From NCBI GenBank assembly GCA_934675625.1, contig CAKURH010000001.1, positions 474-64,473 on the forward strand: a stretch of DNA of 64,000 bases. The letters are read 5' to 3'. Below, in pieces: positions 2,123 through 57,404 of the stretch. Within the stretch, counting starts at the first letter, position 1, and each line of letters opens with the position of its first letter. The notes under the pieces were generated by a model. That model had not been told where the DNA came from. It searched no databases and saw only the letters and a program-made list of their open reading frames with translations. The stretch is from an uncultured Kiritimatiellota bacterium. GTDB lineage: Bacteria > Verrucomicrobiota > Kiritimatiellia > RFP12 > UBA1067. A program made the translations under genes and the position numbers.

Positions 2123-2131
2123 ATTATACCA
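2123..2131 (-). promoter_or_regulatory. Extended -10 box TGGTATAAT, 6 nt before the start codon of the regulator (predicted leaderless transcript)
   Basis: The minus strand reads gtgTGGTATAATccgcacATG. The same architecture recurs at least five more times in the window. Confidence 0.4.
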
Positions 2132-14234: not shown

Positions 14235-16991
14235 ATGAAGACAGAAGTTCTGGGATTGGTGGCGGCTGTGTTGTGCGGTCTGTCGGCCGTGGCGGCGCAT
14301 GACGCGACGAACGACTGGAACGTCGCGACGGGCGATGCGGCGGAGGCCGCGAACTTCAGTCCGGCGACGGCACCGGGCGCGACGGGCCTCGTCCGCGTCG
14401 GGAACGGCGGCACGCTGTCGGTGACGAGCGACCTCGCGTGGGGTGCGCTGTGGGTCGGCACGGCATCGGCGGACGGTGCGGTCGAGCAGACGGCGGGGAC
14501 GCTGACGTTGTCCGAACCCGGCACGGCGTCGGGCGACGGCACGTTGCGGCTGGGCGATACGAAAGGTTGCCTTGGCACGTATCGGCTGACGGACGGCACG
14601 CTGGACGTTCAGAAGGGCAACCCGCAGATTGGCGTGAATGGCGACGGCCTCTTGTCGGTTGCGGGCGGCACGTTCCGCGCCGTAGGGTATCCGTCCGTCG
14701 GACGGTATGCCGCGGCTTATGGCCAACTCCTTCAGACAGGAGGCTTCGTGGATCTTTCGTCGGCCTCGCAACTGACGGTAGGCGAGAGTGGCGTCGGCAC
14801 GTTGACGCTCGCAGGCGGTGCGGCGCAGGTGAAGAAGATGGTCGTCGGTGCGGGCGAGACGGGGCGTGGCCTCGTCAACCTGTGCGCGGGCGGTTCGCTG
14901 TCCGTGGGCGCAGTGTCGGGTGGCAAGGCCACGGACACGCGCTTCAACGCCGTGGGCGGGACACTGAAACCGCAGTCCTCTGCCGAGAGCGTACCGGACT
15001 GGTTTGCGGGCGTTCCCGTCACGGTCGGTGCGGGCGGCCTCGTTGTCGATACGGACGGCAAAACGGCAACGCTCGCCGCGCCGCTCTCCGCCTCGCGGCT
15101 TGTGGCGGAGAATCTTGCGCACCGGTGGAGCTTCAACGGCGACTGGACGGATTCCGTCGGCGCGCAGGATGCGATGGCGGCGGGGGCACAGGCGGATCAG
15201 ATTGCGTTCGCGGATGGCGAAGTGCGTTTGCCGGGGCTCGGCAAGGGACAGGCCACGCTTGCGCTCGGCGCGGGTGTCGTGCCGAGCGGATTGGACGGCG
15301 TGACGATCGAGCTGTGGGCGACGCCTGAAGAGACGCGCATCTGGTCGCGCGTCTTCACGGCGGCTTCGGCGGACGGGGCTCAGACGCTGTATCTTGCGTG
15401 GGCGAATGACCAGAACGTCGAGAAGGGTGCGTTTTGCCTGAAGGCGAACGGCGAGACGCTGTGGAACAACACGTCGGATTTTGCGCCGCTTGCGTTGGGG
15501 CGGAAGTGGCATTTCGCCTTCGTCTTCGCGAAGTCCGGCGCGGGCTGGACGGTGACGGCGCTGAAGCAGGATCCGCGCACGGGCTTCCGCGTCCAGAGCG
15601 AGACGAAGACGATCGCATCGGGCGACTGGGATCCGGCGAGCCTGTTCAGCGGCTTCTTCAACCTCGGCTATTCGGCCAATGACGCGGATGCCTGTGCGCG
15701 CTATGACGAGGTGCGCGTCTGGAAGGTCGCCCTCACCGAAAGCGAGCTGCTGGAGTCGGCGACGCGCGGGCCGGATGCGGACTTCGCGACGCCGCCGGTT
15801 CTCCGCAAGGCGGGCGACGGGACGCTTGCGCTGACGGCGGCGGCGTCCTATGCGGGCGCGACGGACGTCACGGCGGGCACATTGGCTTTGGCAACGCCGG
15901 AAATGCCAGTTCATCGGTGGCATGAGACCATTGAACTGCCGGGCGGCGCACACGGTACGGCGTACAGGGCGCTCGGCAAGGGGCTGTTGCCGACGACGGA
16001 GGCCGGCTTCACGCTGGAACTCTGGGCTACGTTGCACGAGGCACGCAATTGGTCGCGGCTCTTCACGTTCGCCGATGAGGGCAATGCGAACGGCTTCTTC
16101 ATGACGTGGGTGAGCGGCACGGACAACTCGAAGGACATGATCGGTCTGCGTCAGCAGAAGACAACGACCGTCAGCAACAAGATGGCACCCTACGAACTGG
16201 AGGTTCCCTATCATGTGACCGTTGTCTGCGTGAAGGTTGAAGACGCCTGGAAATTCCGCTTCTACAAGCGGAACGTCCGCACGGGTGACTTGGAGAAGAC
16301 CTACGAAATGAAGACGCCGGATGGTTGGACGCCGTCAGCGCTTGCGGCCTGCGCGTTCAACCTCGGCTGGTCGACGGACAGCGGGAACGACGATGCGGCG
16401 GCGCGTTACGACGAGATCCGCATTTGGAATCGTGCGTTCACCGAAGCCGACGTGGTGGCGTCGGGTTGTGCGGGTGCGGATCGTCTGCCGTTCTTCGTAT
16501 CGGAAGATGCGACGTGCAGCGCCTTGCCGGAAGCAACGGATCTCGTGGTGGCGGACGGGGCGACCGTTGCGCTTGGCGGCGCGTCGCAGACCGTGAAAAC
16601 CCTGTCGGGTGCGGGCACGGTGTCCGGATCGGGCACGCTGACGGCGACGGCGGGCATCTTTCCCGGCGGCTCGGGTGCGATTGGCGAGCTGACGCTGGCG
16701 GCGGACGTGAAGGTGGTCGGCGAGGTTGTCTTGGACGTGTCGGCGGACGGCATGAGCGACGCACTGGCGTTTGCGGTCGACGGAACCTACGACGTGTCGG
16801 GGTTGCGTTTGGCGGTCGCCGATCCGGCGAAGCTCGATCCGACGAAGCGGTATGCGGTCTTGCGGCCGAACGGTGCGACGTTGCTCGGCGAACCGGATGT
16901 ATCGGCCCTGCCGGACGGTTGGCGTCTGCGGTTGAGAAACGGCGTCGTCCAGTTAGCCTGCCGTCGCGGCCTGGCGATTCTGCTACGCTGA
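14235..16991 (+). CDS. Large secreted surface protein (918 aa) with Gly/Thr-rich beta-strand repeats and two LamG/concanavalin-like (Laminin_G_3-type) domains
   Basis: Signal peptide MKTEVLGLVAAVLCGLSAVAA. Internal duplication, each copy ending with the LamG hallmark (DEVRVWKVALTESEL / DEIRIWNRAFTEADV). N-terminal GTLT/GGTL repeats resemble autotransporter-associated beta-strand repeats. Confidence 0.7.
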   Translation: MKTEVLGLVAAVLCGLSAVAAHDATNDWNVATGDAAEAANFSPATAPGATGLVRVGNGGTLSVTSDLAWGALWVGTASADGAVEQTAGTLTLSEPGTASGDGTLRLGDTKGCLGTYRLTDGTLDVQKGNPQIGVNGDGLLSVAGGTFRAVGYPSVGRYAAAYGQLLQTGGFVDLSSASQLTVGESGVGTLTLAGGAAQVKKMVVGAGETGRGLVNLCAGGSLSVGAVSGGKATDTRFNAVGGTLKPQSSAESVPDWFAGVPVTVGAGGLVVDTDGKTATLAAPLSASRLVAENLAHRWSFNGDWTDSVGAQDAMAAGAQADQIAFADGEVRLPGLGKGQATLALGAGVVPSGLDGVTIELWATPEETRIWSRVFTAASADGAQTLYLAWANDQNVEKGAFCLKANGETLWNNTSDFAPLALGRKWHFAFVFAKSGAGWTVTALKQDPRTGFRVQSETKTIASGDWDPASLFSGFFNLGYSANDADACARYDEVRVWKVALTESELLESATRGPDADFATPPVLRKAGDGTLALTAAASYAGATDVTAGTLALATPEMPVHRWHETIELPGGAHGTAYRALGKGLLPTTEAGFTLELWATLHEARNWSRLFTFADEGNANGFFMTWVSGTDNSKDMIGLRQQKTTTVSNKMAPYELEVPYHVTVVCVKVEDAWKFRFYKRNVRTGDLEKTYEMKTPDGWTPSALAACAFNLGWSTDSGNDDAAARYDEIRIWNRAFTEADVVASGCAGADRLPFFVSEDATCSALPEATDLVVADGATVALGGASQTVKTLSGAGTVSGSGTLTATAGIFPGGSGAIGELTLAADVKVVGEVVLDVSADGMSDALAFAVDGTYDVSGLRLAVADPAKLDPTKRYAVLRPNGATLLGEPDVSALPDGWRLRLRNGVVQLACRRGLAILLR

Positions 16992-24068: not shown

Positions 24069-26675
24069 ATGAGAAAGAGAGAAATACGAATGAAACGACT
24101 TGTTGCTTTTCTGTCGGGCGTGTTGATGCTGACGATCACGACAAGAGGTGCCGTGACGGAACGCGCCGACGTTGTTTGTCCTGTGCCGTTTGAACGCGCG
24201 TTCACGGTCGCGGGCGTGACGAACGCGACCGTCGGCGCCTTCGCCGTGCCGTCCGAGACAGACCTCCGTCCGTGGCGCGTACGCTACTCGTTCCGCTACC
24301 GCACGGCGGGCTTTGCGGGCGAGGGGCTGCGGCTCGTCACACAGGCCGCGTTCGACGGTGGCACGCGGTTCGACAACCTCACGCCAACCGTCCGCAACCT
24401 GAACTGGGATGCGGGGACGACCTACCGCTGCGGGGCGTCCGAAGACTGGAAAAAGGTCGATCTCGACGTCGACTTCAAGAACGCGCTGCCGCCGGAGGTG
24501 CGCGTCGTGTGCGAGGGGCTGGTCGCGACGGGGCGCGTCGAGTTCACCGACTTCGCGGTCGCGCTCGTCCTGAAGCCACGCCATCGGCTCACGGGCGGCG
24601 AATTTCCGCTCGAAGGCGGAAACGTGCTGAAGCACGTCTTTTTCGCCGAGACGGGCACCGTCCACATCGCGCTCGCCGATCCGGCGCACGTCGTCCGTGC
24701 GGCGGTCCGCGTCCGAGACGCCGAGGGGCGTCCCGTCGGCGCGACGCGCGCGCTCGCCGCCGTCGATGCGGTGACGCTCACGGGGCGCGGATACTACACG
24801 CTGGAGGTCGCCGCGTCCTACGCCGACGGCACAAAGGTGACGACGACGGGGTCGGCCGCCGTCCTCGGCCCGGCGCCGTCCGCCGCGCAGACGGCGGATT
24901 CGCGGTTCGGCGTGATGGTCGTCAACGGCGGCGCGGGGGCGTTCACGCGCGCGTTGGGCAGTCGCTGGGACTGGCGCTTCTTCTTCCACGGCAAGGACAA
25001 CGCGGCGTTTGTCGGCCCGCAGTTCGGCGAGGGGGCGATCTACGCGGGACACCAGTCGCCGATCTACCCCGAGGCGATGGATCCGGCGCACGTCGGCAAG
25101 GGTGGTATGTGGCCGGCGAAGGACTGGGCGAAGCAGCGTGCGCGGACGCGGGCGTTCCTGGAGAAGAATCCGTGCTTCGCGGGACGCCGCCTCTGCCTCG
25201 TCAACGAGCCGGACTTCAAGTGGCGCGGCACGATTCCCGAAATGGTGCAGGCGCATCGGATCTTCGCCGAGGAGGCGCATCGCCTCTATCCTGACTGCGA
25301 GGTGCAGGGCCCGGCGTGCAGTCGCGTCAAGCCGGACTATCTGCGTGCGCTCGGCAAGGAGGGCTTCTTTGACTGCATCGATGCCGTCAACATCCACGCT
25401 TACGTAGACGGCACGAAGCCGGAGGGCGAGTTCCGCCTGAAGCTGCGCGAGGGAATGGACGTCATTCGCCGCGAGTTCGCGTGCGCGAAGCCGGTCTACA
25501 TCACCGAGTTTGGCTGGACGACGGAGAACGGCACGTGGCAGGAGCCGGTCGGCGAACTGACGCAGGCGCGCTACCTGACGCGTGCGTGCACGTTCGTCGC
25601 GTCCGAGGACATCCGCGCCGCCGTCTGGTTCTGCGATCTCTACGTCGCGCGCAACTACGGCGAGGGCGGGTTCTCGATGCTGCGACTCGGCAATGACTGC
25701 ATTTCGCCGAAGCCGGCGGTCGCCGCGTTCGCGACGCTCGCACGCAACCTGTCGGACGTGCAGGGACGGACGCGCGCGCAGATGATTGGCCCGGAGACGT
25801 GGCTCGCGACGGGGCGGCGTGCGGACGGCTCGGCCGTCACGCTCGTCTGGACGCGCACGGGCGAACGGGAGATTCCGCTGCCGGTGCGCACCGTGCGAGC
25901 GGAGAGTTTTCTGGGTGCGCCTGTCGCGCTCGACGGCGCGACGCTGCGCGTTTCGGAGTCGCCCGTCTATCTCTTCGGCGATGAGACGTATGAGGGGCCC
26001 GCGTGGGTCGCGCCGTCGGTGGACGCGGCAAAGCCGGTCGTCGTCGCGGCGGACGAGTATCCGCTCGGACGGACGGGCGTGGGCTGGAAGTGCCGCGACA
26101 ACTTGCAGACGCCGATTCTGCCCGACCGCTGCTGGACGGGCGCGACGAACCGCTGTCCGCGCGTGCGCGTCGCCTATTCGGACGAGGGGCTGATCTTCAA
26201 CGTCGAGGTGGACGATCCGAAGCACGAGCAGCCGTATGCGCAGGAACGCCTCATCGAGGGCGATGCCGTCACGGTCGCGGTCGATGTCGACCGGGGGCAG
26301 GAGTGGCAGCCGAACGCGCACATCACGAGCTTCAAGGGCCACCGTGCGTTCGAGTACACCGTCGCCTTGCGGGACGACGGCAAGCGAGAGGCCTGGCGGC
26401 GAAACGCCTGGGACTTCGACATCCGCCCGAACGCGCCAGTCGTCGTCTTCAACGGCATCTCGCGCATCCGGGAGGAGAAGACGCGCTACATGATTTGGCT
26501 CACGTGGCCGCGTCTTGGACTGGACGGCCCGCCGCCGCCCGGTACGAAGCTCGGCATCGCCGTTTCGGTCAGCGATCTGACGGACGGGGAGCGGAAGACG
26601 TACGACCTCTTCGGTGGCATCTCCGGCACGCCCGATCCGACGAAGTACGGCACGTTCGTCTGCGAAGGGAAGTGA
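24069..26675 (+). CDS. Secreted clan GH-A (TIM-barrel) glycoside hydrolase with N-terminal beta-sandwich and C-terminal CBM9-like domain; paralog of 30879-33494
   Basis: NEPD (acid/base) and ITEFGWTT (nucleophile) blocks. C-terminal RVAYSDEGLIFNVEVDDP… is CBM9/DOMON-like. Alternative start at 24090 (MKRLVAF). Confidence 0.7.
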   Translation: MRKREIRMKRLVAFLSGVLMLTITTRGAVTERADVVCPVPFERAFTVAGVTNATVGAFAVPSETDLRPWRVRYSFRYRTAGFAGEGLRLVTQAAFDGGTRFDNLTPTVRNLNWDAGTTYRCGASEDWKKVDLDVDFKNALPPEVRVVCEGLVATGRVEFTDFAVALVLKPRHRLTGGEFPLEGGNVLKHVFFAETGTVHIALADPAHVVRAAVRVRDAEGRPVGATRALAAVDAVTLTGRGYYTLEVAASYADGTKVTTTGSAAVLGPAPSAAQTADSRFGVMVVNGGAGAFTRALGSRWDWRFFFHGKDNAAFVGPQFGEGAIYAGHQSPIYPEAMDPAHVGKGGMWPAKDWAKQRARTRAFLEKNPCFAGRRLCLVNEPDFKWRGTIPEMVQAHRIFAEEAHRLYPDCEVQGPACSRVKPDYLRALGKEGFFDCIDAVNIHAYVDGTKPEGEFRLKLREGMDVIRREFACAKPVYITEFGWTTENGTWQEPVGELTQARYLTRACTFVASEDIRAAVWFCDLYVARNYGEGGFSMLRLGNDCISPKPAVAAFATLARNLSDVQGRTRAQMIGPETWLATGRRADGSAVTLVWTRTGEREIPLPVRTVRAESFLGAPVALDGATLRVSESPVYLFGDETYEGPAWVAPSVDAAKPVVVAADEYPLGRTGVGWKCRDNLQTPILPDRCWTGATNRCPRVRVAYSDEGLIFNVEVDDPKHEQPYAQERLIEGDAVTVAVDVDRGQEWQPNAHITSFKGHRAFEYTVALRDDGKREAWRRNAWDFDIRPNAPVVVFNGISRIREEKTRYMIWLTWPRLGLDGPPPPGTKLGIAVSVSDLTDGERKTYDLFGGISGTPDPTKYGTFVCEGK

Positions 26676-30878: not shown

Positions 30879-33494
30879 ATGAAAGCAACGAAAAGCCTAT
30901 TGAACCTCGGATGCGCGGTGGTGGCCGCCGCTCTGATCGGCGGATGCTGCGACCGGCACGCCCCGAAGAAGCCCGTCCCCGTCGAGCGTCCCGACCGAAC
31001 GGAAATCATCTTCGCGGCGCCGGACGTGCGGACGATTCCGCTCGACTCGGCGGCGGAGATCCGCGATACGCCGTTCGCGCTTGCGTGGGACGGCGGATGG
31101 GAGCGTCCGTGGACGTTCATCGTCTCGTTCGACTACCGCACGGCGGGCGTGACGGGCGATGCGGTCGCGCTGCGCCTTCAGCCGCTGAAGGACGACGGGA
31201 GCCGCGCGCCGACGTGGCTCTGGCCGAACACCTTCACCGGCAAGCGCGAGGACACCTACGTCCTCGGCGAGAGCGCGGACTTCCGTCGCGTCTCGGTCGG
31301 AGTCGACCTGCCGAACGTCATCCGCAAGTCCTATCGCTGCGAATGGCAGCGCCGCTTCGGGCACACGTCCGGCAAGGTCGAGGTGAAGAACTTCGAGATC
31401 CGCCTCGTGCGCCACGCCCTGCACGCGATCCGGGGCGGCGAATACGAAATCAGGCAGACGAAATACTTTCGCCTCAAAAACGTCTTCTTCGCCGATTCGG
31501 GTACGGTGACGGTCGATTTCGCCTATCCCAAACAGAAGCCCGACTGCCGCGTGGATGTGAAGGACGTCAAGGGGCGGATTGTCCGCACGGTCGAGGGACG
31601 CGACGGACGCGCGACGGTCGACTTCCCGACGCGCGGTTACTGGGCGCTGGAGGCGACGGCGGACTATCCCGACGGCACACGCATCACGACGCCGGGGCGT
31701 GTTGCCGTCTGCGGCACGCCGATTGCGAAGGAACTCGTGAAGAACTCGCGCTACGGCATCATGGTCGTTCTCGGCACGCCTGATCTCTGGGAGAAGCTTG
31801 GTTCGCGCTGGGATCAGCGGTTCTTCGCGCCCGACAATTTGAAGGTGAACTTCAGGATGCCGAACGAGACGGCTGACGCGATCTTCACGTTCCACAGCAG
31901 CCCTGTGCCGCGCGCCTTGCGCCGTCCCGCCGACCGCAACCGCCAGGGCGAGTTTCCGCCCGAGGACTGGGACGCCTACCGCGCCTATGTCGGAAAGTTC
32001 ATGGACGCGCAGCCCGACATGCTGAAGCGCAACCTCTGCCTGACGGGCGAGCTCGACTTCCAGTGGCGCGGCACGGACGAGGAATATGTGAAGATGTGCC
32101 GCATCTTCTGCGAGGAGGCCCGCAAGCGCAATCCGAACGTCTTCCTCACCGGGCCGGACGCGAGCCGCATCAAGCTGCCCTACTTCCGCCGTCTGCACAA
32201 GCTCGGCTACTTCGACCTCATCGACGGCATCAACGTCCATCACTACGTGGACGGCACGAAGCCGGAGGGCGAATACTGGGAGGATTTCGTCGCGCTGTTC
32301 GACTTTCTGAAGGAGGCGAAGATCGACAAGCCCGTCTATATGACCGAGACGGGCTGGACGACGGGCAAGGGCAACTACTTCGTGCCCGTCTCCTACGAGA
32401 ACCAGGCGCGCTACCTGACGCGCGGCATGGCGCTCATGTCCACCGAGGACATCCGCGCGATCATCTGGCACGTCGACTTCACGATGCTCGACGAGTTCGG
32501 CGCGATCGTCAAGGCGCACGAGGCCGCGTGGCCGAAGCCGATGCTGCAGGCGTTCGCGACGGTGACACACAACCTCTCGGACGTGCAGGGCAACATGAAG
32601 CTCCACCGCCTCGGCCCGAAGACGTATCTCGCGAGCGGCCGCCGCGCGAACGGGCGCTTCGTTCACGTCTTCTGGCGGTCGGCGGGCGAGGAGCGCGTCG
32701 CGCCGCCGGTCGCGGGCATCGTGTCGGCGGAGGACTACCTCGGCACGCCCGTCGCATTGGGCAAGACGCTGACGGTCTCGGAAGATCCCGTCTACATCCA
32801 CGCGACAGGCGACTACACGGGGCCGGAGTGGACGCCGCCGCCGGGCGGCTACCGCGAGAAGCCGCAGGTAGAGCTGAAGACCGACTGCACGGCCGTAGCG
32901 CTGGAGCCGGGCGTCAAGTCCGCCGCGACGGCCGCGCCCGTGCCGGCGGCGATGTGGAGCGACCCCGCGTCCGCGCCGACGCTGCGCATCGCCTATGCGC
33001 GCGATGCGGGCTTCATCCTCGAAGCCGAGGTGAAGGACGCGCGGCACGTGCAGCCCCATTCGCGCGAACGGCTCGTGGAGGGCGACGCGCTGACGTTCGC
33101 GTTCGACGTCGACAAGACGGACGAGTGGCGGGCGAACGACATCTGGATGAACTACAAGGGGCACAGCTGCGTCGAGTATTCCGTCGCGCTGCGGGCGGAC
33201 GGCAAGAGCGAGGTCTTCCGCCGCAACTGCTGGATTCCCGACATGAAGAAGTTCGAGTCCGTCGGCGCGAACGTGCGCGCGAACGTGCGGCACGCGAACG
33301 GCGTGACGAAATACTGGGTCTGGATCCCGTGGGCGAACCTCGGCTTGGACGAGCAGCTGAAGGCGGGCGCGAAGATCGGCTTCGCGGCGGTGCTCTATTC
33401 GTCCGACGGCGGCGCGGTGAAGACGAACCGCCTCTTCGACGGCATCGTCGATCCGCTCGACCCGATGCGCTACGGCGTCATCGAGCTGAAGTGA
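30879..33494 (+). CDS. Secreted clan GH-A glycoside hydrolase with CBM9-like C-terminal domain; paralog of 24069-26675
   Basis: Collinear blocks with the paralog (RYGIMVV…GSRWDQRFF; VHHYVDGTKPEGEY; VYMTETGWTT; ARYLTRGMALMSTEDIRAIIWH). Confidence 0.7.
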   Translation: MKATKSLLNLGCAVVAAALIGGCCDRHAPKKPVPVERPDRTEIIFAAPDVRTIPLDSAAEIRDTPFALAWDGGWERPWTFIVSFDYRTAGVTGDAVALRLQPLKDDGSRAPTWLWPNTFTGKREDTYVLGESADFRRVSVGVDLPNVIRKSYRCEWQRRFGHTSGKVEVKNFEIRLVRHALHAIRGGEYEIRQTKYFRLKNVFFADSGTVTVDFAYPKQKPDCRVDVKDVKGRIVRTVEGRDGRATVDFPTRGYWALEATADYPDGTRITTPGRVAVCGTPIAKELVKNSRYGIMVVLGTPDLWEKLGSRWDQRFFAPDNLKVNFRMPNETADAIFTFHSSPVPRALRRPADRNRQGEFPPEDWDAYRAYVGKFMDAQPDMLKRNLCLTGELDFQWRGTDEEYVKMCRIFCEEARKRNPNVFLTGPDASRIKLPYFRRLHKLGYFDLIDGINVHHYVDGTKPEGEYWEDFVALFDFLKEAKIDKPVYMTETGWTTGKGNYFVPVSYENQARYLTRGMALMSTEDIRAIIWHVDFTMLDEFGAIVKAHEAAWPKPMLQAFATVTHNLSDVQGNMKLHRLGPKTYLASGRRANGRFVHVFWRSAGEERVAPPVAGIVSAEDYLGTPVALGKTLTVSEDPVYIHATGDYTGPEWTPPPGGYREKPQVELKTDCTAVALEPGVKSAATAAPVPAAMWSDPASAPTLRIAYARDAGFILEAEVKDARHVQPHSRERLVEGDALTFAFDVDKTDEWRANDIWMNYKGHSCVEYSVALRADGKSEVFRRNCWIPDMKKFESVGANVRANVRHANGVTKYWVWIPWANLGLDEQLKAGAKIGFAAVLYSSDGGAVKTNRLFDGIVDPLDPMRYGVIELK

Positions 33495-33497
33495 GTA

Positions 33498-33506
33498 TGG
33501 TATAAT
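33498..33506 (+). promoter_or_regulatory. Extended -10 box TGGTATAAT, 6 nt before the ATG at 33513 (leaderless)
   Basis: gtgagtaTGGTATAATacgggcATG. Confidence 0.4.
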
Positions 33507-33512
33507 ACGGGC

Positions 33513-35327
33513 ATGAGTTTCAAAGGGAAGAAAGAGAAGAACGTCGTCTTGGTCGGGACGTACAGGACGGGACAGCTGGAGCGTTGGCCCGGTTACTACA
33601 ACTGGCCGCTTGCGGACGGGGATGTGGTCGATGCCGAGGCGGCGAAAACGGTCAACGAAATCTGGCTCTTCAGCGGCACGAAGGGAGGACGTTTCGCGGC
33701 GGAGTTCGTCGGCATGTTCACGCGCGGCGAGCTTGTGCGCGACTTCGGCTATCCGGCGAAGGGTGCGGCGCACGGTACGCGGTATCTGCTCTACAAGATC
33801 CAGACGACTGATGCGCCCGCGAATACGTCGGATGTATTGGCGGCGGAGATGGATCGCGTGATCGTGCGCGCGGCGGACTTCGCGAAGCGGTCGCCGAAGA
33901 TTGCGCGCGAAATCAAGGCGTATCTCGAATCGTCTGACCGCAACAACCCAGACCTCGCACACCGACTTCCGCCGCTTCTCCTGAAGGTGCCGCGCGAAAA
34001 CCTGCGCGTCTGCGAACCGGGCGTACAGATGGATTTTCTATCTTCCCTTTCAATCTCCTCCACGCATGAATGCGATAAAGTCGATTATTTTGTAGAATCA
34101 AAGAAGAACCCGATTGCCGAATTGCGTTCTATCCAACCGCTCACGGCAAATGGATTCACGCATGTTGATTGCTTTAGTGGCGTTGGAGGCTTCTGCACAG
34201 GGCTTCATGCCGCTGGATTCACGACAAAGGTCGCAATTGAGAAAATTCGCTCGTGCGTCGAGACGTATGAGGCAAACCACCCAGAAGTTCATGTGATCAA
34301 CGAAGACATCTGCAAAGTTAAGGCCGAAGACATTCTCCCCTATTGTCCCAAGGGTGGAATCGATCTCGTCACTTCTGGAATGCCTTGCGAGACGTTCTCG
34401 ACCGCCGGGAACACGTCGCGGAGTTTCTATGACGAACGGCAATTCCTGTTTCGGCAGGGCATTCGGGTTGCACAGATTACGAATGCCAAGTTTCTGCTAT
34501 TCGAGAACGTGCCAGCCATCACGACAAAGACGACGGAAAAGGGGTCGAAAGACCTTATTGTTGATGCATTGAAGGATGAGATGGCGAAAGCCGGTTACAG
34601 AAACTACATTGAGGTCGTTCTGGATGCGACGAAATTTGGCGTGCCGCAAAAACGCAAACGCTATTTTGTCCTTGGCACGAGGCTGAAGAACATGTCTTTG
34701 AGCAAGCCACGGCCATTTGTCGCAAAGGCCGTGACTGTCGGAGAGGCATTTGACGATTTGCCGTCGGTGACACCAAATACGGGCGTCGAAGAGACGCATT
34801 ACCTGTCGCGTTCAAACGCCTTCACGAAGCTGATGCGCGATGATTCGTTCTGGCGGCGAAAAGAGTCGTCCAATAAGGGACTCTCGTACCAAATGCCGAT
34901 GAAGCATCGTCCGGCTACGTTGGAGCGATTCGGATTGCTTCGCCCAGGAGAAGGGCTTCGCGAACTATTTGAGCGCTACACGGGACGTGCGCGCGAAGAA
35001 CTCCAGTCGCGTCGTGTACTGCCGAAGAAGATGTTCATCAAAAGGAATTATCGTCTGCCCGTCGGGATGCCATCGCCATGCGTCACGTCGCATTGCCTGG
35101 ACGAATTTGTGCATCCAACGGAAGACCGCGCATTGACCGTGCGCGAATGCGCACGGTTGCAGTCATTCCCTGATTCGTATGATTTCGTCGGGGGGCCTTA
35201 CATTGTGCCGCACATTGATCGTGAAGTTCAGGACAAGTATGAGCAGATTGGCGATGCCGTGCCACCGTTGTTGGCGTATGCCTGGGGGCGGGCGATTTCA
35301 AAAATGATGGAGGATGTCTCGAAATGA
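33513..35327 (+). CDS. DNA (cytosine-5)-methyltransferase with an about 170-aa N-terminal extension domain of unknown function; the ORF spans a sharp GC-content break near nt 34020
   Basis: C5-MTase motifs are present in order: I FSGVGG, IV GMPCETFS, VI ENV, VIII QKRKRYFVLG, then RECARLQSFPDSY. The N-terminal 170 aa are GC-rich and host-like; the MTase body is AT-richer. Confidence 0.8.
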   Translation: MSFKGKKEKNVVLVGTYRTGQLERWPGYYNWPLADGDVVDAEAAKTVNEIWLFSGTKGGRFAAEFVGMFTRGELVRDFGYPAKGAAHGTRYLLYKIQTTDAPANTSDVLAAEMDRVIVRAADFAKRSPKIAREIKAYLESSDRNNPDLAHRLPPLLLKVPRENLRVCEPGVQMDFLSSLSISSTHECDKVDYFVESKKNPIAELRSIQPLTANGFTHVDCFSGVGGFCTGLHAAGFTTKVAIEKIRSCVETYEANHPEVHVINEDICKVKAEDILPYCPKGGIDLVTSGMPCETFSTAGNTSRSFYDERQFLFRQGIRVAQITNAKFLLFENVPAITTKTTEKGSKDLIVDALKDEMAKAGYRNYIEVVLDATKFGVPQKRKRYFVLGTRLKNMSLSKPRPFVAKAVTVGEAFDDLPSVTPNTGVEETHYLSRSNAFTKLMRDDSFWRRKESSNKGLSYQMPMKHRPATLERFGLLRPGEGLRELFERYTGRAREELQSRRVLPKKMFIKRNYRLPVGMPSPCVTSHCLDEFVHPTEDRALTVRECARLQSFPDSYDFVGGPYIVPHIDREVQDKYEQIGDAVPPLLAYAWGRAISKMMEDVSK

Positions 35328-36175
35328 AATGCACTTATAAAGAATATGGCCGTTCTATCTATGACAAGACGTTCGATCATGAACTGCAAGGACTTGTGAC
35401 TCGGAAAAAGAAGGTCGGTGAGAAAGAGGCCGAACGAATGGCGCAAAAGGAAGCCATCAAGGTGGCTGTCCTTGAAACGATGCGGGCGTTTCCGCAAATC
35501 GAGCCTGCCTTGATTTGGAGGGGAATTTATGAGGTGCATATCCATCGCAAGAGTGGACTGGATGACAAGTCCGTGATTGATCGCGTCGTAAGCGCTGATC
35601 AGAGTTGGAAGAAGTCGAGTGGGCATGCGTTTGAGGAAATGATCAAACTCTTGGCAAACGATGCTCTTGTCGGCACGGGAATCGAGATTCTTCTTCAGAG
35701 AGACCTCAATACGATTATCAAGGCGGGTGAGCTTGCCAATGAACCGCGTGACATCAGTTGGCTGAAGGAACAAATCAAGGGAAGCGTCTTTGATCTGTTT
35801 GCAACATGCGTAAATAAGGATGGAAAGCGGTTTTGTTACGGATGCATTCAAAGCAAGACAAGCATACGAGACCGCGTGACACGGGATCGCGAGCCATCTT
35901 TGGCGGCTATGCATTCGTTCTTCTGGAGCACGGTCATTGTCTTGGATGGCGATTTTATGAAGAATCCAAAGTTCCTCGCAATGGTCGATGGAGGGACGCA
36001 CGAATATCCTGATAACGGATGGCATGGCATGTACGTGTTCTCGGATCTTTATAAGGGACAACGAGTCTATCCCATTCATGTTGATTTCAAGAGATTCGCC
36101 GAACATGCAAAGATTGCGGCTGAGTATTGGAAAACCCAGCGACAGTGGTTTGACGAGAAGTGGAAGGCCGAATAA
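35324..36175 (+). CDS. Hypothetical protein, translationally coupled (ATGA) to the C5-MTase; candidate cognate type II restriction endonuclease
   Basis: 283 aa with no recognisable family. Low GC like the MTase body. A possible degenerate PD…(D/Q)xK segment (VFDLF…YGCIQSK). Assigned by position only. Confidence 0.4.
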   Translation: MKCTYKEYGRSIYDKTFDHELQGLVTRKKKVGEKEAERMAQKEAIKVAVLETMRAFPQIEPALIWRGIYEVHIHRKSGLDDKSVIDRVVSADQSWKKSSGHAFEEMIKLLANDALVGTGIEILLQRDLNTIIKAGELANEPRDISWLKEQIKGSVFDLFATCVNKDGKRFCYGCIQSKTSIRDRVTRDREPSLAAMHSFFWSTVIVLDGDFMKNPKFLAMVDGGTHEYPDNGWHGMYVFSDLYKGQRVYPIHVDFKRFAEHAKIAAEYWKTQRQWFDEKWKAE

Positions 36176-36264
36176 GGCTTGTCGTGGTGTGTGTGCCGAG
36201 TGAGTTCAGAGGATGTGTTGAAGAAGAAGCGAAAGATTTTGGTTGTGCTCGGATTGAGAGGTGA

Positions 36265-37455
36265 ATGATGAAGTGCTTGCTCGGTCGGCTCAAGTTTTTG
36301 AACGCCATTCTCCTGATTGCAGCCCTCTGGGCGGCGCAAGGTTCGGGTGCTGCCGAGAAGACGAATGTCTTCTTCGTACATGGCGCAAACGTGAGTGAAC
36401 GTGAATCGCATATCTGGGCGTCGGTGATGTTCAAGCGGCTCTGGCAGTCGGGTGCGAATATGGAGTTCTGTCCCGTGGCGTGGGAGTCAGACATCGGCCC
36501 GGCCTACAACTATCATGTCAACGCCTCAAACGCCTTCGTCACCGCCCGTCGCCTCGCGTCGCTCATCAATGGTGCGTCAGGGCGCAAGGTGGTGATTGCG
36601 CACAGCCTTGGCACGATGGTTGTTGCGGCGGCCATTCAGGACTACGGTCTGCAGGTCGACAAGTTCATCATGCTCAATTCTGCGATTCCGTCAGAGGCGT
36701 TTGAACCGTCGTTGGCCGACTATTCGCCAGAGAACCATCTTGTTCATGCGGATTGGACAGATTATCCGTCTCGATGCTGGGTGGCGCGATGGCACGAATT
36801 CTTTGTCAAGGATCCGAATGATGCGCGCGCCAAGCTGACGTGGAAGGGGCGTTTTTCCAAGGTGAAGTCTGTTGCCGTCAACTTCTATTCATCGGGCGAT
36901 GAGGTTGAGGAAATCTACTTGGATAGCCAGAATCCGGCTTGGTATAATGGCGTCAGCCCGTCAGGCAATTGGGGTGATCGCTACTCGTGGCACAAGCAGG
37001 AGATTTGGAAGGGGCGCAAATCACTTCTCGGCTTCATGGGCACGACGGACTGGTCTGGTTGGGGGTTCCGAACAAAAGGCCTGTTGAATACGCGTGTGTG
37101 GTCTGTCGCTGATGCGAATGCCGTCACGGATTTTGCCGTTTTCAAAACAAACACCGTGTTTTCCCTTAGCCCAGGTTCCATCTCTGACGCAGAAAGCTCG
37201 CGTTTGATTATTGATGCACATTTGGCACAAGGAATTCCTGCACTGTCTCCACCGACGGGTCGAACGAACCTGACCGAATATGGGATTCCGTCTTTTGACT
37301 TGAACACGCCGGAGTTCATGTCGAGCAAGTGGCCTCGTTGCGAACCAGGAGACGAACTTTCCTTTCGGTGGCTTCATTCGGACGTCAAAAATGTTGCCTA
37401 TCATTACACGTACCCGCTTTTTCGGAAGATCGTTGAGATCGGAGGCTTGAAATGA
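36265..37455 (+). CDS. Exported alpha/beta-hydrolase, lipase/esterase-like (GxSxG = HSLGT)
   Basis: Signal peptide MMKCLLGRLKFLNAILLIAALWAAQG. VVIAHSLGTMVV nucleophile elbow. Intermediate GC. Confidence 0.6.
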   Translation: MMKCLLGRLKFLNAILLIAALWAAQGSGAAEKTNVFFVHGANVSERESHIWASVMFKRLWQSGANMEFCPVAWESDIGPAYNYHVNASNAFVTARRLASLINGASGRKVVIAHSLGTMVVAAAIQDYGLQVDKFIMLNSAIPSEAFEPSLADYSPENHLVHADWTDYPSRCWVARWHEFFVKDPNDARAKLTWKGRFSKVKSVAVNFYSSGDEVEEIYLDSQNPAWYNGVSPSGNWGDRYSWHKQEIWKGRKSLLGFMGTTDWSGWGFRTKGLLNTRVWSVADANAVTDFAVFKTNTVFSLSPGSISDAESSRLIIDAHLAQGIPALSPPTGRTNLTEYGIPSFDLNTPEFMSSKWPRCEPGDELSFRWLHSDVKNVAYHYTYPLFRKIVEIGGLK

Positions 37456-38378
37456 AATTGTTCGTTCAGATGTTATGCCTGACTGTGTGCGTGTGCCCAG
37501 TTCTTGCCTATGATCTGCTTCGCGAGGGCGCTGTTGCGGATGTTCGACTTCAGGTCTTAGACGATCAGGGGACTCCAGTCGAGGGGGCTTTGGCCACAAT
37601 TTGCTTTCAAAGGACATTCGAAAAGTCAGATGTCGTCACGTGTAAGACGGACAAAGACGGTACGTGTGCGGCAAAGCATAAGACAATCGGCGGCCTACGC
37701 GCTTATTTAGAAAAGGATGGCTATTATAAGACGTCCATTCAACCGTTATTTCGGCAATGGGAGTGGCGAAAAGCGCAAGAGACGCAGAAATGGTCGGCGT
37801 GTACGATGGAGTCGACGGTTTGTCTCAAAAAGAGGCGTATGCCTGTTCAGACGGCCTTCCACGCTGTCGATTTCAAGCCGTTCCCGGACACGAACGTTGT
37901 CGTGAAACTCGACTTGGAGACGTTGGCGTGGTGTCCGCCCTACGGAAACGGTCGCCACGACGATCTTCACCTTGTCTTTGACGGATGGCGCAATCCGAAC
38001 GACTGGGACGATTTCCACGAGCACCTGAAGGTCGAGATGCCGAATGGCGCGGATGGGTTCTATGTGGCGAAAACCGATCCGACGAGCGCGTTCAAGTACG
38101 CCTATGCGGCTGACACGAACGCAACGTACCGTAAGTCGTTCACGTTTCGCCATGTCCACAAGGCGGAGGGCATTACGGAGTCGAAGCGGCTTGCCGCCGA
38201 CGAGTATCTGATCTATCGCGTTCGGACGCAGACGAACGAGTTCGGTCAGGTGACACGGGCGCATTACGGGCGCATCGGAGAGAAATTCAGCCAGTACATC
38301 GGCCTCTCGATCAAGAGTTGGTTCAACTCGAACGAGAACGACACCAATCTGGAGGATGCGCGGCAGAGTGTGTGGTAG
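37452..38378 (+). CDS. Hypothetical exported protein, translationally coupled to the lipase-like gene; last gene of the low-GC island
   Basis: ATGA overlap. Signal peptide MKLFVQMLCLTVCVCPVLA. No recognisable domain. Confidence 0.5.
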   Translation: MKLFVQMLCLTVCVCPVLAYDLLREGAVADVRLQVLDDQGTPVEGALATICFQRTFEKSDVVTCKTDKDGTCAAKHKTIGGLRAYLEKDGYYKTSIQPLFRQWEWRKAQETQKWSACTMESTVCLKKRRMPVQTAFHAVDFKPFPDTNVVVKLDLETLAWCPPYGNGRHDDLHLVFDGWRNPNDWDDFHEHLKVEMPNGADGFYVAKTDPTSAFKYAYAADTNATYRKSFTFRHVHKAEGITESKRLAADEYLIYRVRTQTNEFGQVTRAHYGRIGEKFSQYIGLSIKSWFNSNENDTNLEDARQSVW

Positions 38379-38441
38379 CTGTTCGCACGTCATTGCCATG
38401 ACTATTAACCAACAACGAACGACACTAGGGAACAAACAACC

Positions 38442-40534: not shown

Positions 40535-40543
40535 TGGTATAAT
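40535..40543 (+). promoter_or_regulatory. Extended -10 box TGGTATAAT, 7 nt before the folC ATG (leaderless)
   Basis: cacgtgTGGTATAATccgcctgATG. Confidence 0.4.
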
Positions 40544-40550
40544 CCGCCTG

Positions 40551-41858
40551 ATGACAAAGTTGACAAACGATTCGTTTCTGTCCGAACTCGCGGCGCGTCG
40601 GCGCTTCGGCATGAAGCCGGGGCTCGGGACGATTGCCGCGCTCTGCCGGGCGCTGGACGACCCGCAGCGGCGGTTCAAGGCGATCCATGTCGCCGGCACG
40701 AACGGCAAGGGCGCCGTCTGCGCGATGCTCGACGCGGCATTGTGCGCATCTGCCGCCGTCGGCGCGGCCGGTGCCGTCGGCCGCTACACGTCGCCGCACC
40801 TCGTGCGCCTCAACGAGCGATTCTGCCTCGGCGGCGCACCGGTGGCGGACGCGACGCTCGAACGCCTCGCCCGCACGGTGAACGCGGCGGCCTCCCGTCT
40901 GCCGTCCGCTGACGAGCTGACGTTCTTCGAGGCCCTGACGGCGGTCGCATTCCTGCTCTTCGCCGAGGCGCGGGTGTCCTGTGCCGTCCTTGAATGTGGT
41001 CTCGGCGGGCGTCTGGACGCGACGAACGTCTGCGATCCCGCGCTCTGCGTCATCACGCGGATCGGGCTTGACCACTGCGACTGGCTGGGCGACACGGTCG
41101 AGCGGATTGCGGCGGAAAAGGCGGGGATCGTCAAGCCCGGTGTGCCGGTCGTCCTCGCGGCGAATGCGCCGTCGGTCGTCGAAGTCGTTCGCGAGGCCGC
41201 TCGCGCGAAAGGGGCTCCGTTCTTCTACGCGCCGGATCTCGCTTCGGACGCAGAGATTCCGGCGGACTTTTCGCTGCTGGGCGCGTTTAACCGGGAGAAC
41301 GCGGTCACGGCCCTCGCCGCGCTGAAGGTTCTGCATCGCGTCGCGAACGGGGGGGCGGCGACCGAAGCCTTCCGTCTGCCGCCCCACGCGTTCGCGCACG
41401 TCGTCTGGCCCGGACGCTTTCAGCGCGTCGGCTCGTTTCTCGTCGACGGCGCGCACAATCCGCCGGCGGCGCGCGCACTCGCGGCGTCCCTCGCGCCGCT
41501 GTTGCCGGACGCGTCGCGGCGTCTCAATCTTGTGTTCGGGGCCTGCGGCGACAAGGATGTCGCGGACGTCCTGCGTATCCTCTCGCCGTTCGTGCGGCGC
41601 GCCTTTGCCGTGCGCACGAACAATCCGCGTTCGCTCGCGGCGGAGGATCTCGCGGCGCGCATGCGCACGCTCGGTCTTGCGGCGACGCCGTGCGCCACGC
41701 TGCGGGAGACGCTGTCGCGCTGTGCGCCGCGCACGGCGCCGAACGTCTCGACGCTCGTCTGCGGCTCGCTTTTCCTCGCGGGGGAGGCCCTTGTCGAACT
41801 GGGGGCCTATCCGTGGTCGACGACGCGTTTCGATCCGTCCGAGCGACTGCGCGCGTAA
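40551..41858 (+). CDS. folC: Folylpolyglutamate synthase / dihydrofolate synthase (Mur-ligase family)
   Basis: HVAGTNGKGAV P-loop. MurC/FolC order of domains. 435 aa. Confidence 0.8.
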   Translation: MTKLTNDSFLSELAARRRFGMKPGLGTIAALCRALDDPQRRFKAIHVAGTNGKGAVCAMLDAALCASAAVGAAGAVGRYTSPHLVRLNERFCLGGAPVADATLERLARTVNAAASRLPSADELTFFEALTAVAFLLFAEARVSCAVLECGLGGRLDATNVCDPALCVITRIGLDHCDWLGDTVERIAAEKAGIVKPGVPVVLAANAPSVVEVVREAARAKGAPFFYAPDLASDAEIPADFSLLGAFNRENAVTALAALKVLHRVANGGAATEAFRLPPHAFAHVVWPGRFQRVGSFLVDGAHNPPAARALAASLAPLLPDASRRLNLVFGACGDKDVADVLRILSPFVRRAFAVRTNNPRSLAAEDLAARMRTLGLAATPCATLRETLSRCAPRTAPNVSTLVCGSLFLAGEALVELGAYPWSTTRFDPSERLRA

Positions 41859-57395: not shown

Positions 57396-57404
57396 TGGTA
57401 TAAT
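57396..57404 (+). promoter_or_regulatory. Extended -10 box TGGTATAAT, 9 nt before the rimO ATG
   Basis: cgggtTTGGTATAATacgcgcaccATG. Confidence 0.4.

Follow-up and report, generated by a model that had tools for sequence, protein, structure and literature searches.

A conserved, promoter-bearing N-terminal module heads unrelated DNA methyltransferases in Kiritimatiellia and Lentisphaeria and probably forms a platform for exchangeable restriction-modification cassettes

Gene flow is limited by the barriers that restriction-modification (R-M) systems set. When such systems turn over, mobile elements or replacement between flanking genes are usually held responsible. C5-cytosine DNA methyltransferases (MTases) of the SsoII/EcoRII/MspI type possess an N-terminal regulatory DNA-binding region, and C-protein controllers run R-M operons. 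At one pneumococcal locus DpnI, DpnII and DpnIII occur as alternative cassettes (PMC12707154); R-M gene complexes that replace one another as alleles between conserved flanks have also been described (Furuta et al., 2010; PMC2853133). PUA-like domains that bind modified bases include ASCH, EVE, YTH and SRA (PMC4738411, PMC7641849). Here we describe a 64,000-nt stretch of DNA from an uncultured Kiritimatiellota bacterium (contig CAKURH010000001.1, positions 474 to 64,473; hereafter, the window), in which a C5 MTase gene and an overlapping endonuclease gene lie in a low-GC island and the first 175 codons of the MTase gene encode a conserved segment that we call the module. We consider it probable that this is a BsaWI-type cassette seated behind a lineage-specific platform, composed of a promoter and the module, and that such cassettes are exchanged by recombination. 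The features of the island are as follows (GC3, GC content at third codon positions; ORF, open reading frame).

33496-38428, + strand: the whole present/absent segment (the island), matched by an empty site in the near-identical relatives L095 and L096
33498-33506, + strand: extended -10 promoter, TGGTATAAT, 6 nt before the ATG of the MTase ORF
33513-34037, + strand: conserved N-terminal module, amino acids (aa) 1-175, ending ...LRVCEPGVQM; GC3 ~0.8; predicted PUA/ASCH-like core and helical tail
34038-34154, + strand: hypervariable, low-GC linker of ~40 aa from the module to MTase motif I; putative zone of recombination breakpoints
34155-35327, + strand: C5-cytosine DNA MTase body, within the ORF at 33513-35327 (604 aa); PF00145, TIGR00675, PADLOC MTase_II
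35324-36175, + strand: type II restriction endonuclease (REase) of the BsaWI family, 283 aa; its start overlaps the MTase stop by 4 nt (ATGA)
36265-37455, + strand: secreted alpha/beta-hydrolase-like protein, 396 aa, with an AHSLG elbow and an N-terminal signal-like sequence; passenger gene
37452-38378, + strand: hypothetical protein with a signal-like N-terminus, 308 aa; 4-nt overlap with the hydrolase-like gene, translationally coupled

Of the described systems, the BsaWI R-M system (type IIP, W^CCGGW; PDB 4zsf) resembles the locus in its genes: the endonucleases align over nearly their full length, and in both cases a C5 MTase lies directly upstream. Compared with its Firmicutes orthologs of ~390 aa, however, the MTase of the window has the 175-aa module and the 40-aa linker in addition, and the window is without a small helix-turn-helix (HTH) controller gene. 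As in exchange of the Dpn type, unrelated systems alternate between conserved flanks (the window and locus L007; loci L019 and L065) and no integrase was found in the island or around the module loci that were searched; unlike that exchange, the left flank lies within the MTase reading frame and is part of every enzyme, and the platform is multi-copy per genome, lineage-wide, and itself present or absent at a locus. With the SsoII/EcoRII/MspI type the locus shares an extra N-terminal region on the MTase and a system without a separate controller, its expression being probably leaderless in this subclade; the module differs in its size (~175 aa), in the absence of an HTH, in its modeled PUA/ASCH-like fold and in being unchanged across MTase classes. 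If that model is correct, the joining of a PUA-like domain to a DNA MTase has precedent in the ASCH/EVE/YTH/SRA group. An integron platform, too, is a fixed promoter-bearing unit upstream of interchangeable cargo, but here no integrase and no attC-like site were found, the cargo is a translational fusion, and the cassette ends in ordinary genes. The R-M pair, alternative cassettes at one locus, and PUA-like or regulatory N-terminal extensions on MTases are thus known in kind. We found no description in the literature of R-M systems of Kiritimatiellia or of the module domain, nor of the combination reported here: one conserved, promoter-bearing N-terminal module that is present in several copies per genome, is joined in frame to 20 or more unrelated MTase lineages from three classes, marks the cassette boundary and is accompanied by a reproducible GC3 step inside the gene.

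The initial annotation, made from the letters alone, had called the N-terminal part of the MTase uncharacterized, and aa 1-214 indeed had no match in Pfam, NCBIfam, PHROG or PADLOC. When residues 1-210 were used as query, 47 proteins matched at 38-79% identity; in these, the segment ends ...LRVCE-AAVQ-(L/M) and is followed by various C5 MTases, by DUF3791, by truncated remnants or by nothing. A scan of public assemblies, with one genome per species, yielded 79 module loci, nearly all in Kiritimatiellia, Lentisphaeria or 'Verrucomicrobia' metagenome-assembled genomes (MAGs) from gut and rumen, and many assemblies held two to four of them. Among 77 module-bearing ORFs, PF00145 (C5) was present in 61 and PF01555 (N4/N6) in 10, with one D12-class MTase and one DUF3791; an ordinary host protein carried the module at none of the 79 loci. 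When 1.84 billion cluster representatives were searched exhaustively with a profile, only 258 module matches were returned, and the module was N-terminal in 150 of 150 among the matches listed. Clustering of 57 full-length fusions at 40% identity gave a single module cluster versus 20 body clusters. Across different genomic contexts, the DNA homology of the module extends precisely from the -10 element to ...CAGATGGA(T/G)TT, the latter at position 34037 of the window. The ratio of non-synonymous to synonymous substitution rates (dN/dS) of the module, 0.25-0.38, indicates purifying selection that is less strict than on the enzymes.

The unit begins with its promoter. The motif TGGTATAAT occurs seven times in the window against zero expected, and in four of the seven cases an ATG follows at a distance of 6-9 nt; we therefore take it to be a host-type promoter, and its position ahead of the MTase ORF agrees, as far as the sequence goes, with the earlier claim that such a promoter drives this gene. 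It was also found upstream of many other module genes. The transcript from the module promoter is probably leaderless, and the distribution of the motif points to frequent leaderless transcription, in this organism, from promoters of the extended -10 type. Other copies in the window include 2123-2131 (- strand), 40535-40543 (before a folC-like gene at 40551) and 57396-57404.

Analysis of base composition confirmed a low-GC island with a type II R-M pair. In 300-nt windows, GC was 0.65-0.73 upstream of 33,450 and downstream of 38,550 and 0.47-0.59 from ~33,900 to ~38,430. By gene, GC3 was 0.90 and 0.895 in the two flanks, 0.64 in the MTase ORF, 0.54 in the REase gene, 0.63 in the hydrolase-like gene and 0.68 in the hypothetical gene. 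Within the ORF at 33513-35327, 30-codon windows gave a GC3 of 0.73-0.87 in codons 1-170 and of 0.43-0.70 beyond, the fall lying between codons ~160 and ~180 (nt ~34,000-34,050); the compositional break is therefore inside the reading frame, near codon 170, where it had been predicted, and the profile is far from uniform. The MTase is accordingly a chimera of a GC-rich N-terminal part (GC3 ~0.8) and a low-GC body (~0.5), as had been proposed. The same step was seen throughout the family: in 58 junction-aligned genes, mean GC3 was 0.67-0.78 through the module and 0.44-0.56 after it (overall, 0.74 to 0.49), the change being finished within ~10-15 codons after 'VCE'.

Module and body also differ in their histories. 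Near-identical modules precede different bodies in L035 and L042, which belong to one genome (modules 97.5% identical), and in L019 and L065 (99.5%), the bodies being 27-29% identical; in the reverse case, bodies that are 88-92% identical stand behind modules that are 53-65% identical. Forty fused BsaWI-type MTases have bodies 70-95% identical to that of the window and modules 33-77% identical, and the two values show no evident relation. The module is missing from another 79 BsaWI-type homologs of ~388-394 aa, one of them annotated in Faecalimonas umbilicata. The body of the window is ~71% identical to gut Firmicutes MTases of 388-394 aa that lack the module. Module and body histories thus disagree.

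Comparison of the locus itself with those of relatives showed exchange and presence/absence at different borders. The Kiritimatiellaeota MAG of L007 is collinear with the window, with nucleotide identities of 93% in the upstream 871-aa gene, 82% in the module, 80% in the hydrolase-like gene and 90% in the GH gene, and has an unrelated C5 MTase and an HNH nuclease in place of 34,037-36,296. This collinearity indicates that MTase body and nuclease were replaced between the module and the hydrolase-like gene, within which similarity resumes at 36296 and continues at 80%. Further downstream, the hypothetical gene matches L007 at 90.5% identity in its 3′ part (37864-38379) and shows no detectable DNA similarity in its 5′ part, which suggests a recombination breakpoint near 37864. 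Synonymous divergence from L007 was 0.19-0.28 in the flanks but reached 0.53 in the module and 1.04 in the hydrolase-like gene, and the history of the island therefore differs from that of its surroundings. In L095 and L096, on the other hand, only a 63-nt spacer separates the 871-aa gene (96% aa identical) from the GH gene; homology stops at 33495 and resumes at 38429, with flank identities of 94.8% and 96.7%. From this empty site it follows that 33,496-38,428 is one indel that includes the GC-rich module and its promoter. The left boundary of the island, which had been placed inside the MTase ORF, hence lies at 33,496 and is distinct from the compositional edge at ~34,030; an intragenic GC step can signal systematic mosaicism at the level of domains instead of an insertion boundary. 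Neither direct repeats nor target duplications were found at the island ends, only microhomology (TGAG, GGAACAAA). In L011 the promoter, module, MTase and nuclease are present together at 82% nucleotide identity and are followed by a DUF2235 hydrolase gene, unlike in the window. Protein P0189, from separate sources, is a 604-aa copy that is identical over the body (100%) and nearly so over the module (99.4%). The linker found a BLAST match solely in this essentially identical protein, and none in the Firmicutes cassette described below; we also considered whether it is a translated remnant of the Firmicutes HTH gene or of the 5′ region, and no similarity was seen.

Elsewhere, the MTase is followed by nucleases of many types (NgoMIV, HpaII, EcoO109I, NgoFVII, EcoRII, MvaI/BcnI, MutH-like, NgoBV, BglII, Bpu10I, HNH and others). 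A RadC-like JAB gene comes next on the same strand at ~46 of 75 loci, with a mean GC3 of 0.63. Vsr, considered as a recurrent small third gene, occurred in two cases only; the recurrent gene is RadC. All tested pairs of loci with near-identical modules and different cargo share a second block of similarity 2-4 kb downstream, which, where identified, is RadC or a DUF2235 hydrolase gene, and conserved left and right arms therefore bracket the cassettes.

Together, these data led us to favor the following explanation. The platform would consist of the host-type TGGTATAAT promoter and a 175-codon, putatively PUA/ASCH-like segment in frame with whichever MTase lies downstream, and several such platforms would reside in each genome of Kiritimatiellia and Lentisphaeria, usually with a RadC-like partner downstream and here with the hydrolase-like gene pair. 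MTase body and nuclease would be swapped by homologous recombination, through a crossover within the module or directly behind it and a second one in a conserved downstream gene; at this locus the hydrolase-like gene would act as the right-hand homology arm. The GC step would then reflect two pools, the module circulating only within the high-GC lineage and the bodies being drawn from a broader low-GC pool to which gut Firmicutes belong. The module may sometimes be homogenized between paralogous copies, and gain or loss of the whole unit at a locus, module included, may require no dedicated recombinase. Its role is the least certain step: it might be a nucleic-acid-binding handle for the antidote gene that replaces the small HTH controller of Firmicutes, and it would provide native expression and possibly autoregulation or DNA targeting.

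Several observations weigh against this explanation. RadC is absent from the window, and the GC3 of the window's module, ~0.8 versus 0.9 in the flanking genes, is not fully host-like. The occurrence of the module in place of an HTH gene is a positional analogy only, and a comparison of upstream regions revealed no evident operator-like or conserved palindrome near module promoters. No tyrosine-recombinase-like ORF was detected within -6/+7 kb of ~75 modules, a weak negative as it came from a jackhmmer search with a single seed. Each new in-frame fusion of an unrelated body at the same junction would, in addition, call for illegitimate recombination followed by selection. Finally, most of the data come from MAGs, in which the number of copies per genome and some of the junctions are open to binning or assembly effects.

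The predicted fold bears on what the module may do. AlphaFold models of the module (pLDDT 84) contain a beta-rich core at aa ~8-126 and a conserved helical tail; the modeled core appears PUA/ASCH-like, with its best structural neighbors in the ASCH/EVE/YTH/SRA group. A Foldseek search of the model against the PDB gave nothing significant, and no PUA-like profile match was obtained for the module in Pfam, NCBIfam, PHROG or PADLOC. A profile search of PDB sequences with the module alignment (A1) was discarded, as it matched only the MTase motif I region, from C-terminal overhangs. The module matched no HTH family, and the model is a beta-barrel with helices. Many of its aromatic residues are invariant (Y17, W25, Y29, W51, Y91). 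In gut Firmicutes the corresponding cassette comprises an HTH_3 gene (72 aa), the MTase gene (388 aa) and a BsaWI-like REase gene on an integrase/primase element with a GC content of 0.35; as HTH_3 precedes the MTase there, the module stands at the place of a controller-type regulator. At L086 (6001-7271), the module is fused to DUF3791 and followed by an overlapping gene for DUF3990, with a CesT-like chaperone gene and a 1773-aa ORF upstream. DUF3990 belongs to the ADP-ribosyltransferase clan and occurs as the tip of Rhs toxins (PMC7955679, PMC4524185). The module is therefore not confined to MTases, and, given the order DUF3791-DUF3990, both kinds of two-gene cassette have it on their first gene, presumably the protective one. 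Since a native promoter and the module accompany MTases of any class as well as DUF3791, a general role on the antidote side is likelier than the reading of one particular methylated base; the module may serve native expression or autoregulation, or bind DNA in general.

A bolder form of the platform explanation, which we put forward tentatively and with less confidence than the exchange of cassettes itself, is that the promoter-module and RadC together make up a docking platform that needs no recombinase, to which any toxin-antidote cassette can be fused through its antidote gene, with the PUA/ASCH-like domain as common sensor or regulator. If this were true, R-M systems of any class or a DUF3791/DUF3990 pair could be plugged in, and addictive defense modules would be domesticated and rapidly exchanged across the lineage.

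Alternatively, module and MTase may form a reader-writer enzyme, in which the module senses a modified or flipped base (e.g., at a hemimethylated site) and steers or stimulates the MTase for maintenance, the modularity being a by-product of domain shuffling. The invariant aromatic residues are in keeping with this possibility, as are earlier reports in which ASCH domains and bacterial N6A MTases are joined in one protein or encoded in one operon (PMC4738411). It is unlikely, however, that a single pocket would serve all marks when one module is found on m5C, N4/N6 and D12 MTases and on DUF3791, which is not an MTase; a role as an m5C-specific reader is weakened by the same fusions. The shared promoter, the RadC partner and the GC3 step are left unexplained as well. 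A reader-writer enzyme is thus possible and explains less than does the platform; we regard it as rather improbable.

Even less probable is capture in the manner of an integron or shufflon, whereby a dedicated recombinase would recognize a particular site where the module ends and insert there cassettes that lack a promoter. As expected of such a mechanism, many unrelated cargo genes are joined at a constant position, and the expression platform is fixed and promoter-bearing. Yet the ORFs of the island contained no recognizable integrase or transposase domain, in line with the initial annotation, and no recombinase was found near the ~75 modules, within the limits of the single-seed search. 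No conserved repeats mark the cassette ends. The only inverted repeat (33505-33538 and 34034-34067; 34 nt, 76%) was rejected: it is a purine- against pyrimidine-rich match, its right arm lies in non-conserved cargo, and L007 and L011 differ. The transition is moreover graded over ~10-25 codons and does not occur at one nucleotide, and the right-hand arms are ordinary genes with long blocks of similarity.

The original suggestion was that a unique fusion arose when an R-M cassette of foreign origin either landed in the 5′ end of an ordinary host gene or captured that end. The GC break inside the ORF, the host-type promoter and the lack of an integrase in the island all fit such a one-off chimera, but the module heads MTase genes at 79 loci and in 258 cluster representatives, with the same junction in aligned homologs. 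Near-identical relatives are without the module and the rest of the island together, and at the more distant orthologous loci examined the island is absent and no stand-alone gene for the N-terminal domain was seen. What had been taken for the 5′ end of a host gene is instead a dedicated multi-copy module, shared by at least 20 unrelated MTase lineages. Nor is the N-terminal part peculiar to this protein: within Kiritimatiellia and Lentisphaeria it is a common MTase domain, although it belongs to no standard family, and the same fusion, with a matching compositional break, recurs in a relative, L011, albeit with different DNA behind the nuclease gene. A common lineage domain and the fusion in L011 argue for a systematic modular architecture and not for a recent accidental chimera, which we now consider very improbable.

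A chimeric metagenomic contig that joins high-GC host to low-GC foreign DNA can be dismissed almost entirely: the window and most related loci do come from metagenome assemblies, but P0189 is essentially identical from separate sources, L011 has the module-MTase-REase stretch at 82% nucleotide identity, 58 genes from many assemblies share the in-frame junction and the GC3 step, and the flanks are collinear with L007 and L095.

The R-M pair of the window is in itself ordinary. The arrangement given in the initial annotation (MTase, endonuclease overlapping by 4 nt, hydrolase-like protein and coupled hypothetical protein) matches the ORF list and the families assigned, and database comparison identified the first two products as a C5 MTase and a BsaWI-family nuclease. 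In the 604-aa protein, PF00145 covers aa 215-597 with its full profile (E = 7e-55), TIGR00675 scores above its cutoff (E = 5e-46) and PADLOC MTase_II matches the body with E = 1.4e-102. Motifs I (FSGVGG), IV (PC, in PCETFS), VI (ENV, in FENVP), VIII (QKRKR, in PQKRKR) and X (GDAVPP) can be read from the translation, and residues 215-597 constitute, by sequence, a complete C5 DNA MTase. In a phmmer comparison, aa 36-282 of the 283-aa protein (247 residues) align with BsaWI (PDB 4zsf) with E = 1.5e-98 and, by eye, about two-thirds identity; PF18643 (RE_BsaWI) and a full-length PADLOC REase_II match (E = 3.5e-104) were also found. The pair is most likely an isoschizomer system of BsaWI and is predicted to recognize WCCGGW. 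Relative to L011, dN/dS was 0.084 for the MTase body and 0.081 for the REase, and both are therefore kept by selection. The 396-aa hydrolase-like protein gave only sub-threshold Abhydrolase_6 and DUF900 matches and none to PADLOC defense families or PDB sequences, and the 308-aa protein had no significant family in Pfam, NCBIfam, PADLOC or PDB sequences. Within the hydrolase-like gene lies a sigma-70-like promoter match at 36920-36948 (+ strand; TGGATA, a 17-nt spacer and TGGTATAAT), which could be an internal promoter of the downstream gene or due to chance.

A number of further arrangements were observed. At L066 (38-1181), in one genome, the module ORF stops at the junction and the MTase resumes just downstream, either as a split two-gene variant or as a pseudogene or sequencing error. 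In L004-L006 (P0047; 10001-10543), from close relatives, the module is represented by its first ~46 codons, which are joined to the C-terminal part of a DUF2235/Tle1-like hydrolase. This fusion lies beside dapB, was seen on at least 23 contigs and has the appearance of a deletion in which the R-M cassette was lost between the module and the right-hand hydrolase gene. In L001-L003 (10001-13615), the module and ~60 aa of a C5 MTase (motif I) end at a stop codon and are followed by ORF6N (KilA-N-like), HNH_2, further ORFs and RadC, in what looks like a remnant left after most of an earlier cassette was replaced. The pair of hydrolase-like and hypothetical genes recurs downstream of the module in L023 (5193-8190), with a second copy of the hypothetical gene, and upstream of it in L059 (5170-7178), and judging from these occurrences the pair seems to travel with such variable regions. 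L007 has an extra ~650 nt between the hypothetical and GH genes (14785-15434) that include a piece of the empty-site spacer (GTTCAGCGAAAGCAAC), which may be read as further evidence that this spacer is a repeated target of rearrangement. The 871-aa gene upstream of the island (30879-33494), which has no Pfam family, has a 39%-identical paralog ~5 kb upstream of it in the window, at 24069-26675, and the pair is also present in L007.

In this poorly studied gut lineage, then, the 5′ ends of MTase genes appear to be standardized, with one native promoter and one domain marking the point at which cassettes are swapped. If the module is a common regulator or a sensor of DNA or modified bases, R-M and toxin-antitoxin modules would have a control principle that is new, and the domain would also furnish a marker for finding defense cassettes in genomes of the PVC group and a handle for expressing foreign MTases in these hard-to-manipulate bacteria.

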